Shown here piece after piece: positions 57,655-60,247 of a DNA stretch of 64,000 nt. The stretch is taken from the NCBI GenBank assembly GCA_965645245.1, contig OZ287068.1:1178001-1242000 (forward strand), given 5' to 3'. The position numbers and the translations under genes were made by a program. Every line of letters starts with the position of its first letter. The first letter of the stretch is position 1. The stretch comes from Massalongia carnosa. Lineage: Eukaryota. The notes below the pieces were generated by a model. That model was not told the DNA's origin. It ran no database searches and saw only the letters and a list, made by a program, of their open reading frames with translations.

Positions 57655-58082
57655 GCTGTTGGTTTAGGCTTCATGACGGAATGATTCGATTGAAAGATTC
57701 AGTTTGACATTTATTGTCATCTTATGAAAGTCTTGGGGTCTATTTGGACCGACACCCTCATTATATAAGCTTGGATGTCTCGAGAAGGTGGATCGAATAA
57801 TCTATTTTTGATCGTAGTGATCAGCTTTCTTTGATAGCTCCAAAATCAAATCAAGCTTTTTCACCCTTTCCACTTTTCCTCACTTTATCCCTCCTAGGGG
57901 AATATCGATGGATAAATAATTATATGATCATTGATGATATAAATTGTACAAATCGATCTCGATTGATAGAATAGACTAACTGTTGAATATCTAACTCCTA
58001 CCAGTACAGTGAACACCTACCAGTTCAATGAACATAGCACCTACGACTGCCCAAGATGGACAGAGCACCGTGGCTGACCAGT

Positions 58083-59409
58083 CACGCGGGTGACAAAATA
58101 AATTGCAACGTGTAAGCGAATTTACCCCTGAATGCCCCATCAAAACACCCTCCTTTTTTTCAACTTTTTATCTCATCATCAATGTCTCGACCCAAAAAGC
58201 CTCATTATGATACTCCCACAAAGGCCAAAGTTCAAGGAACTTATCAATTTCTCATCTCACATGCAATTCCATTCGATCCACGGGCCATTTTTCAGGAATT
58301 TGGCGTGGCCGAGCGCGCGGGCTATAACATCATCAAAAGCGGAGCTTCTTCTCGCACACGTCACAATTCTTCTCTCGTTGAGACTCGGGGTCGAAAGCGA
58401 AAGATTAGTGATGATCAGCTGAAGGAGGCAGATCACATTCTGCAGGATCAAGATCTACAATTGGAAGGAAAACGCTACACATGGGATGCTTTAGCACAGG
58501 AAATTGGGGCCGACGTGATGGGACGTACAATGAAGAGAACTCTTACAGCTGCCTTGAATTATCACAAATGTCTAGCCTGTGTCAAAGGGTGGCTGGCAAT
58601 GGCATCAGAAGAAAGAAGAGAAGAATTTGCTACAGTTATGTTAAATAAATATCCTCGGTCCGAAGATTGGCATCGCGTACGATTCAGCGATGAGATTCAT
58701 TTTGGCTACGGGCCTGAAGGACAGTTACGAATCATTCGTAAGCCCGGAACAAGATATCGTTGGGATTGTATTCAGCATCGTGATGCACCACCTGAGAAAG
58801 ATCGTAAAAGAAAGCACTGCTGGGCAGCAGTTGGTTACAATTTCAAGTCGGATATCTACTTCTACGATGTGCCCAGCAATAGCAATGGAAAAATGACTCA
58901 TCAGGTGTATATTGACGCTATTCTTGATCCCGTCGTCAAGCCCTGGTTGGAGCGTGGAGATGACTTCGTACTTGAAGAAGATGGAGACTCTGTTCATGGC
59001 ACGGGCAAGAGACGAAACGCGGTCAAAAAGTGGAAGTTAGATCACGATTTAGAGCACTATTTCAATTGTTCTTCATCTCCTGATCTAGCTCCCATTGAAA
59101 ATTGCTGGCAGCCCGCAAAGCAGCATGTTCGTAAATTTCCTTATTGGGACGATGCAAGTTTGGAGCAGCTGATTAGGGAGGGATGGGCTCGAGTCAGTCA
59201 GGACTTTATCAATGAAAGGGTGTTATCCATGCCCAAAAGATTGAAAGAGGTGAAAGATGCAAAGGGGGCGATGACTGGTTATTGATCTCATGTAATTTAG
59301 ATGAATTTTATCAGCTATGCAGATGATGGTTGATGATGAGATGAAAATTTGAATAAAAAAGGGGGGGTAAATTCGCTTACACGTTGCAATTTATTTTGTC
59401 ACCCGCGTG
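58083..59409 (+). mobile_element. Complete IS630/Tc1/mariner-superfamily DNA transposon (1327 bp) with 46-bp perfect TIRs and 5-bp CCAGT flanking duplication
   Basis: TIRs at 58083-58128 and 59364-59409 are exact reverse complements; CCAGT at 58078-58082 and 59410-59414. Confidence 0.93.
58182..59285 (+). CDS. DDE transposase, Tc1/IS630-like, DD38E
   Basis: Intact 367-aa ORF; N-terminal HTH region with ETRGRKRK, W..VRFSDE, VLEEDGDS.H, SSSPDLAPIENCW, SMPKRL. Confidence 0.93.
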   Translation: MSRPKKPHYDTPTKAKVQGTYQFLISHAIPFDPRAIFQEFGVAERAGYNIIKSGASSRTRHNSSLVETRGRKRKISDDQLKEADHILQDQDLQLEGKRYTWDALAQEIGADVMGRTMKRTLTAALNYHKCLACVKGWLAMASEERREEFATVMLNKYPRSEDWHRVRFSDEIHFGYGPEGQLRIIRKPGTRYRWDCIQHRDAPPEKDRKRKHCWAAVGYNFKSDIYFYDVPSNSNGKMTHQVYIDAILDPVVKPWLERGDDFVLEEDGDSVHGTGKRRNAVKKWKLDHDLEHYFNCSSSPDLAPIENCWQPAKQHVRKFPYWDDASLEQLIREGWARVSQDFINERVLSMPKRLKEVKDAKGAMTGY

Positions 59410-60247
59410 CCAGTTATGGGACAAAGACTGCTAAACAGCACATCACGGTCATACATACCATTTTTATCATAGCCATATATCCATAGTCATATACCTATTT
59501 CAACACTAACACAGGCAAACTTTTGATGAGGAAACAGGCATGATAAAAAACATGTAATTTATATGATACAAATTAGTGTCATAACCTTAGGTTGCATACA
59601 CTTACTGAACAAATAAAAACAAAAAATTCTTATCTCCTCCCCTTTATAACGTCGGATAACATAGGTATCCGTTTCTTTCACTAGCACTTAACAAATCTAT
59701 ACCTACCCCAAACGCAATTTCTCTTTCATTCTAACCTAGTAAACTATTATCTAGATGTCCTCAACACATCCAGAAAATATAGAGTAACGTCATCACCCCG
59801 TTCCCTTCACCCCCTTTTTCTCTCAGTTCTTCCCTTTTCCCCCCAAACCTCATTTTTTTCATTTCTTCTTATTCTGTCAGGCCTGGCCTGACCTGACATG
59901 TTCTGATCTGACCTGGCAAGATATAATGAAGGTAAAAGAGCAGTCACGGTATGAAGAGATAAACTGAGTGGTGTGCGTGGTTCATTATAGCCGGAAATAC
60001 AGGAGAGCAAAACAAACAAGATATGATATGATGATGATGATGATTCTTATTCCGATGTGGTACCGGCCGAAGGCCGGCCCATGCGGGCGAGTCTATCTAG
60101 TTTTATAGTACATGGAAAACCTTTTGAGGAAGAAAAACCATGCAATCCTGTGTCCGGCCGAGGACCCTCTGGGTCCCAGCCGTGTGCTCCATGAAAAAAC
60201 CTTTGACCTAAGACAAGTATGAAAAATGAAACAAAGCATGCCTACTG

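Follow-up and report, generated by a model that had tools for sequence, protein, structure and literature searches.

How does a transposase of the Tc1 type come to lie between ends that carry no TA? Duplication length and a TA target serve as superfamily-defining characters in classification and annotation software, and elements of the IS630/Tc1/mariner superfamily are delimited by them. In a 64,000-nucleotide stretch of the Massalongia carnosa genome (assembly GCA_965645245.1, contig OZ287068.1, forward-strand positions 1,178,001 to 1,242,000; hereafter the window, with positions counted from its first letter), a 1327-bp transposon with a transposase of this kind is flanked instead by two copies of the pentamer CCAGT. 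The locus asks whether the pentamer is an accident of one copy or the target-site duplication (TSD) of a family. The latter is favoured here: the element is very probably an autonomous cut-and-paste Tc1-like transposon, one of a large, mainly ascomycete family of elements of about 1.25–1.8 kb that duplicate 5 bp and not TA.

The transposon spans 58083–59409, or 58078–59414 with both TSD copies included (Table 1). A first-pass annotation, made from the letters alone, had described perfect 46-bp terminal inverted repeats (TIRs), CCAGT abutting both ends with TA at neither, and an intact transposase. Direct reading of the junctions, an inverted-repeat search and an open reading frame (ORF) search bear this out: the two arms are perfectly complementary, and the 367-aa ORF is open with its catalytic triad intact. 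A 24-nt terminal pattern matches the window twice, both times at the TIRs, with 0 matches expected (100 shuffles). The TIRs cannot be extended into the flanks, as had also been noted, because the next outward bases beyond CCAGT (T on the left; G on the right, as reverse complement) do not pair. The element starts with CAC and ends with GTG, giving it CA...TG termini. Its TIRs lie within about 100–125 bp of the ends of the transposase ORF, and the ORF search found no other ORF of at least 100 aa inside the element. This compact layout, with one transposase gene between TIRs, is a feature of the superfamily. The inner imperfect repeat may serve the transposase as a subterminal binding site, or it may be part of a promoter.

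Table 1. The transposon, its parts and its neighbours in the window
Feature	Position	Strand	Evidence or remark
Left TSD copy, CCAGT	58078..58082	.	sequence read directly; identical to 59410-59414
Left TIR, 46 bp, begins CACGCGGG	58083..58128	+	inverted-repeat search, 100% complementary to right arm
Inner imperfect inverted repeat, left arm, reaching start codon	58154..58182	+	29 nt, 90%; also blastn self-match
Transposase gene, 367 aa, no intron needed	58182..59285	+	ORF search, no stop inside
Inner imperfect inverted repeat, right arm	59330..59358	-	29 nt, 90%, pairs with 58154-58182
Right TIR, 46 bp	59364..59409	-	100% complementary to 58083-58128
Right TSD copy, CCAGT	59410..59414	.	direct reading; adjoins right TIR
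SnoaL-like ORF	52443-53288		
Fungal fruit-body lectin ORF	57181-57651	+	FB_lectin, E 8e-50; about 430 bp upstream of transposon
Non-LTR (long terminal repeat) retroelement resembling long interspersed nuclear elements (LINE-like)	60251-63711	-	long ORF with RVT_1, E 1e-23
Endonuclease ORF of the LINE-like retroelement, upstream, overlapping the RVT_1 ORF	within 60251-63711	-	Exo_endo_phos_2, E 8e-22

A 5-bp match between the flanks of one element arises by chance about once in 1000 cases, and it is the family-wide count rather than this single match that sets the CCAGT repeat apart from chance. Relatives were collected from metagenome contigs, where 590 pattern matches yielded 316 confirmed ones and the best 80 loci, at 33–62% protein identity, were kept. 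A script located the inverted repeats around each locus with a cut-off score of at least 20. An inverted pair was lacking at 34 of the 80, many of them short or truncated contigs. Loci with weak pairs scoring below 20 were dropped (L007, L013, L025, L054, L061, L066, L080), as were those with a terminus at the contig end (L020, L038) or with outer ends damaged or not reached (L039, L067). The 35 loci analysed were reduced by six duplicates of the same insertion (L009, L012, L034, L047, L068, L071) and by L015, the termini of which were unrecognisable. The ends of L006 were placed by hand, the motif filter having missed CACA/CACC ends, and a more sensitive inverted-repeat search at 30 failed or doubtful loci added no usable pair. 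The final set holds 29 independent insertions, namely the window element and 28 metagenome relatives at 39–59% protein identity to it.

A perfect 5-bp direct repeat abuts both ends in 19 of the 29 insertions, each time with a different pentamer, and the loci concerned range over the full 39–59% identity to the window protein. TA stands at both junctions in none (0/29). When other exact repeat lengths were scored in 28 insertions, three repeats of 2 bp, one of 3 bp and one of 7 bp were obtained, with none of 4 or 6 bp. Pairing mismatched left and right flanks as a control gave 5 pentamer matches in 756, and the next pentamers outward gave 0 in 28; the binomial probability of 19/29 at the control rate is 7e-35. 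Two junction pairs checked by direct reading agree with the script. The 5-bp duplication is a family trait and not chance. The proposal of the first-pass annotation, a fungal IS630/Tc1/mariner lineage with altered stagger and target choice, is supported by these counts; the flanks tabulated here for metagenome relatives show 5-bp repeats in most cases and no TA/TA pair.

The duplicated pentamers also share a composition. The 19 of them are 74% G+C; the 15 bp next to them reach 50%, and the flanking DNA as a whole 51%. C predominates at TSD position 1 (13/19, p 8e-5) and position 2 (12/19, p 5e-4), G at position 4 (12/19, p 5e-4), and G or C at position 5 (17/19, p 4e-4), while the third base to the right of the TSD is A in 14/19 (p 1e-5). 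These values are uncorrected, and all five stay below 0.05 when multiplied by 100 tests. The pattern points to a loose CCNGG-like target core plus some further context, a bias drawn from just 19 sites in elements of different subfamilies. As a separate observation, several insertions from related samples (L033, L041 and L077) have nearly the same target context (GGTACC, then T-rich/GG and GTA), as if the preferred target were longer or a single repeat family had been hit more than once.

Several findings weigh against a uniform 5-bp duplication. In ten of the 29 cases no perfect 5-bp repeat is present (L001, L003, L008, L010, L021, L028, L031, L032, L064, L077). A notable case is L001 (1369–2661), which has an intact 367-aa ORF and 49-nt perfect repeats and yet lies between unrelated 5-bp flanks; for this young-looking element, a chimera of the metagenome assembly or recombination of one copy with another may be the reason. 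L003 is flanked by a 3-bp repeat and L028 by a perfect 7-bp repeat, and the flanks agree at 4/5 bases in L064 and at 3/5 in L077. The ten misses could stem from decay, from copies that have recombined, or from contigs wrongly joined across multi-copy elements. The flank table, moreover, includes no other copy of the window subfamily (>70% identity). Among described elements, DTT_Birute of Zymoseptoria tritici has, in its authors' description, TA beside a terminus written CTCGTG, and this TA is 'inversed at the opposite end' (passage of PMC7174668).

Two of the loci named above deserve a remark of their own. L028 (668–2024) has an intact 382-aa ORF and CAAGGCC ends, and its nearest member of the set, L032, shows no repeat; its 7-bp repeat could be chance or could mark a sub-lineage with a different stagger. 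L013 was considered as a TA-flanked case and rejected on reading, as its right arm ends CGCGTG and is followed by CCAGG, and its left arm begins CACGC; the two arms differ by 11 nt, and a matching duplication is likewise not shown.

The catalytic residues of the transposase are D170 (58689–58691), D267 (58980–58982) and E306 (59097–59099), with 96 residues between the first two and 38 between the last two; the count of 38 from the second D (in EEDGDS) to the E (in PIEN) had been given correctly in the first-pass annotation. In an alignment of 28 sequences, D170 (in RFSDE), D267 (in LEEDGDS) and E306 (in SPDLAPIEN) are among the residues that are invariant or nearly so, and the D, D, E triad is kept in 27, one sequence having N at the first position. 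Pfam recognises DDE_3 alone in the window protein (residues 166–325, E 4.7e-11, 43.2 bits against a cut-off of 28.6) and in 27 of the 28 aligned relatives. The RNase H-like DDE catalytic domain takes up about residues 166–367 and is preceded by a helical part at about residues 10–135, in which a basic RGRKRK linker (about residues 69–74) separates two helical groups. The AlphaFold model has a predicted local distance difference test score (pLDDT) of 76.8 and seven helices in residues 11–125. For this putative DNA-binding part of the window protein, Pfam gives no match at E<=0.1, a point against the reading favoured here; HTH_Tnp_Tc3_2 is detected by Pfam in 12 of the 28 aligned relatives, the window protein excepted.

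Structural comparison leads to the same group. With an E-value of 5.3e-18, a profile of the 28 sequences matches the catalytic domain of Sleeping Beauty SB100X (5cr4). In this alignment the corresponding catalytic motifs face FSDE, the second D of EEDGDS and SPDLAPIEN; the same profile matches Mos1 weakly (E 0.15). The best Foldseek match of the model is again 5cr4 (E 7.9e-10, 27% identity, template-modelling score 0.75 on the target), followed by full-length Mos1 transpososome chains and then SETMAR. The top 15 matches listed are all Sleeping Beauty, Mos1 or SETMAR, with E from 8e-10 to 2e-5, and Mu, IstA and retroviral integrases trail at E above 4e-3. The full-length Mos1 chains align over 365–386 columns, although the root-mean-square deviation is about 17. 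By Pfam, profile and predicted fold, the transposase is a Tc1-like member of IS630/Tc1/mariner. The protein thus places the element in the superfamily, but the TA hallmark is missing from its junctions, and it represents a variant lineage, not a canonical member.

A protein database search returned 310 relatives. Among the matches listed, the nearest is 98% identical and belongs to a cluster of 43 members, four more lie at 71–77% identity and many at 45–60%. The few named relatives among them are Ascomycota (Bimuria, Clathrospora, Pyrenophora, Botrytis, Pseudogymnoascus), often annotated "Tc1-like transposase DDE domain", and no Fusarium protein is among the 120 listed of the 310. A profile search of 1.84 billion representatives found 435 clusters (50% identity) at E<=1e-30 and 12,908 at E<=1e-3. 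Judged by these similarities, the family is large and grades into the general Tc1/IS630 world. Relatives were found neither in a prokaryote genome collection, with the window protein and the alignment as queries, nor in a viral contig collection. The neighbouring fruit-body lectin gene and the named ascomycete relatives together place the element in a fungus.

Two features that seemed diagnostic in the window copy turn out to vary within the family. The D-to-E spacing in the 28 aligned proteins is 37 residues in 15, 38 in 10, and 39, 40 and 41 in one each, the differences falling within a variable loop, a short one, that follows the second D. The designation DD38E therefore describes the window copy, as first noted, and fails as a lineage signature because the spacing runs from 37 to 41 within one family. 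The CAC termini are likewise real in the window copy and not fixed: relatives may begin with CAA or CTC. Their termini follow C-A/T-C/A-G...ACAAAA, and the family ends can be written CA(C/A)G(C/T)GG...ACAAAA, or CTCGCGG in some. Element length among the analysed relatives is 1254–1803 bp, with a single transposase gene. Locus L067 contains, at 1450–2025, a 576-bp miniature non-autonomous derivative of an L002-type element, with 61-nt perfect TIRs and hardly any coding sequence; the left terminal three bases are altered or missing, and a second 61-nt inverted pair (303–363 / 2043–2103) encloses the derivative.

Departures from TA have precedents in the superfamily. Nematode Tc4/Tc5 (TNA) and the ciliate TBE/Tec elements have 3-bp, A/T-containing targets, so that duplication length and target can both shift; they duplicate 3 bp, in contrast with the 5 G+C-rich bp of this family, and are probably no close relatives of it. 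Of the structures solved so far, Tc1/Sleeping Beauty (DD34E) agrees best in both sequence and fold and has the same catalytic motifs, and Sleeping Beauty shares the order of helix-turn-helix (HTH) region, putative in this family, linker and DDE domain. Sleeping Beauty differs in its sequence, at 27% identity, and in a spacing after the second D that is 3 residues shorter than in the family profile. The Tc1/Sleeping Beauty group differs also in its TA, where 5 bp are duplicated here, and in the ends, which do not start CAGT in this family.

Impala, a Tc1-like element of Fusarium oxysporum with miniature derivatives (mimp), resembles the window element in its fungal host, its length of about 1.3 kb and its single transposase of similar size, whereas it duplicates TA and this family 5 G+C-rich bases. 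The impala transposase has 340 aa (PMC5579170) against 367 aa here, and the impala subfamily is given as DD37E (PMC7325037), a spacing also found in 15/28 members of this family, the window copy having 38. A 16-nt terminal motif resembles, by eye, the published impala/mimp repeat consensus (PMC5579170). Impala is probably the closest named fungal element, judged by size, spacing and termini rather than by proteins.

Other candidates are more distant or less easily compared. Intruder (DD38E) is described from animals, as a family that is sibling to DD34E/Tc1 (PMC7731502); its duplication and its host range, animals rather than fungi, set it apart, and its matching number seems to be a coincidence of loop length that carries no weight because the spacing varies within the present family. 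DTT_Birute (GenBank MN813065) is 1884 bp long with a 343-aa DDE ORF and 62-bp inverted repeats (PMC7174668), and its terminus CTCGTG resembles the CTCGCGG with which some members of the present family end. Compared by description only, it may be a relative; with the TA reported for it, it could be a TA-using neighbour or a case of a misread junction, and its membership would make the family non-uniform in duplication type. Elements of Sclerotinia, Paracoccidioides and Cochliobolus are larger, of pogo/Fot1 size, and use TA, and Dici of Diutina catenulata is described with TA and DD34E. Passages of PMC4188875, PMC2836289, PMC4112212, PMC9977792, PMC4522978, PMC11544213 and PMC13469147 were compared as well.

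Is the family new? In the full-text literature searched, which does not extend to Repbase, Dfam or subscription journals, no group of Tc1-like or IS630-like elements is described as duplicating 5 bp, and Tc1/mariner diversity surveys give TA as the rule (passages of PMC7325037). DTT_Birute, itself possibly related, had no Repbase match in 2020 (PMC7174668). These points speak for novelty. The rival account, in which the 5-bp family is real but already catalogued in Repbase, Dfam or a paper elsewhere, and the window element is a new member of a known group, falls a little short of an even chance. It draws on the size of the family, with its 435 clusters, and on the presence of relatives in well-studied genomes (Pyrenophora, Botrytis, Pseudogymnoascus), where curators have probably met it; there is also the example of the hAT 5-, 6- and 7-bp subgroups, first recorded in Repbase Reports alone (passage of PMC12730594). 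That the family is previously undescribed is about a toss-up. The fuller claim, that a species-rich fungal Tc1/impala-like clade switched from TA to a 5-bp stagger at G+C-rich CCNGG-like targets and has escaped description, is in our view evenly balanced between true and false.

The state of the element in its own host was approached through sequencing runs. Seven public runs contain part of the stretch, one of them labelled lichen metagenome, and the contigs of four were compared with the element and its 1-kb flanks. In the run with the best coverage (X2), the summed word depth is 5,354–11,656 over the element interior and 134–156 over the unique flanks, a ratio of 35–85x that cannot be read as a count of copies. 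Taken with the protein cluster of 43 members, the depth indicates tens of near-identical copies in the host. One contig each in X2, X5 and X1 aligns from exactly 59410 rightwards and is preceded by letters foreign to the element, which end GGGTGA where the window has GGCTGA before the left CCAGT. On these alignments, the contigs of the three runs would represent a related unfilled copy of a host repeat; CCAGT stands in it once, which is what is expected before a 5-bp duplication. Against this use of the site, it is a paralogue of which 30 letters are seen; an orthologous empty site was not found in the four runs, where no contig bridges the element and contigs break in the flanking repeats.

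The first-pass annotation had also suggested recent insertion and possible activity. Recent activity of the family in the host is plausible, judging from the identical TIRs, the open ORF, the depth ratio and the 43-member cluster; for the window copy in particular the suggestion is weakened by its own residues. The high-depth consensus and the window copy have 5 listed differences within the ORF. One, at 59142, gives His in the consensus and Tyr in the window (H321Y), and residue 321 is nearly invariant, at least 90% of relatives having H there. Two residues after D269, beside the DGDS motif, the window has Val where most relatives have Gly. The window copy, open and complete, may yet not be the most active or master copy. 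A stronger form of this doubt holds that it is an inactive relic of a family now immobile in the host, its identical TIRs dating from a recent but ended burst. The five ORF differences, H321Y included, fit such a history, as does an ORF of at least 338 aa in only 10/29 analysed elements, but the full-length open frame, the intact triad and the perfect repeats do not, and the nearest cluster, at 98% identity, carries the conserved residues. We consider the relic account possible and rather doubtful. Repeat-induced point mutation was considered as the origin of the five private changes: four of the five are G-to-A or C-to-T and one only lies in CpA, and the process is not claimed.

It could still be supposed that a common Tc1/impala-type transposon, one that duplicates TA, is at hand and that the flanking CCAGT is chance, aided by local CCAGT-rich sequence. 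Two more copies of CCAGT lie 58 and 77 bp upstream of the element, in a 19-bp tandem duplication, and the described fungal Tc1-like elements use TA in the passages compared. The pentamer occurs 96 times in the whole window, however, against 111 expected, and is thus without enrichment. This account is very improbable in the face of window junctions without TA, 18 other insertions with differing 5-bp repeats, the complete lack of TA/TA pairs and the low control rate.

The first-pass annotation had remarked on a Transib-like look with an unrelated transposase, and this was accurate: the likeness to Transib and the CMCT group lies in the CA...TG termini and the duplication length alone, while the sole ORF is DDE_3 with a Tc1 fold. 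That the ends and duplication belong to a Transib/CACTA-type (CMCT) element, with the Tc1-like gene a passenger or nested and another transposase making the duplication in trans, can practically be dismissed: 5'-CA...TG-3' termini and 2–5-bp duplications are typical of the group (passage of PMC12730594) and the window has CAC...GTG, but this is a 1.3-kb element whose TIRs lie close to the ends of its only, Tc1-like ORF, the same ends accompany the same transposase family down to 39% identity, the termini vary between CAC, CAA and CTC, the terminal motif recalls impala/mimp by eye, and Transib is reported missing from fungi in a survey (passage of PMC5751038).

A Tc1-like transposon with a 5-bp duplication would be expected to move as follows. 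The transposase would bind the TIRs through its putative N-terminal paired-like helix-turn-helix region, and the D170/D267/E306 active site would excise the element. The two 3'-OH ends would then attack target phosphates staggered by 5 nt on opposite strands, instead of 2 bp across TA, and gap repair would leave the 5-bp duplication. Targets would be G+C-rich pentamers with a loose CCNGG-like bias, and the window copy would have entered CCAGT in the repeat-rich stretch between the fruit-body lectin gene and the LINE-like retroelement. The 5-bp stagger is what established DDE cut-and-paste chemistry would imply from the duplication; we infer likewise the target preference (n=19), the mode of DNA binding and current activity. 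For a shift from 2 to 5 bp, the target-capture complex would have to differ from that of Mos1 or Sleeping Beauty in its active-site spacing or in the bend of the target.

If the family is as described, target-capture geometry can change within the superfamily without a large change of the catalytic domain, since the window protein has the same fold as Sleeping Beauty at 27% identity. It would provide a natural pair of closely related transposases, TA-type and 5-bp-type, for asking what sets strand-transfer spacing and target choice; relatives that use TA, impala for one, could help by comparison to pin down the parts of the protein on which the stagger depends. Annotation pipelines with TA as a requirement will draw the borders of these elements wrongly or put them in the wrong class. 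In practical terms, a compact autonomous fungal transposon with G+C-rich pentamers as its targets could be used beside TA-restricted tools in fungal insertional mutagenesis and would be free of the A+T bias of TA-dependent vectors.

The fungal intergenic DNA around the element is rich in repeats; the named neighbours are listed in Table 1. The 19-bp tandem duplication upstream occupies 57993–58030, with units 84% identical and CCAGT in each, 50–85 bp from the insertion site. In X2 the depth rises to 14,000–50,000 in 57974–58085, 59430–59653 and 59990–60414, against about 140 for unique sequence, and loose contig ends at 58064/58069, 59440/59441 and 59468 imply that other copies continue differently. 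Around the transposon there is thus a patchwork of short repeats, very high in copy number yet absent from the rest of the window.

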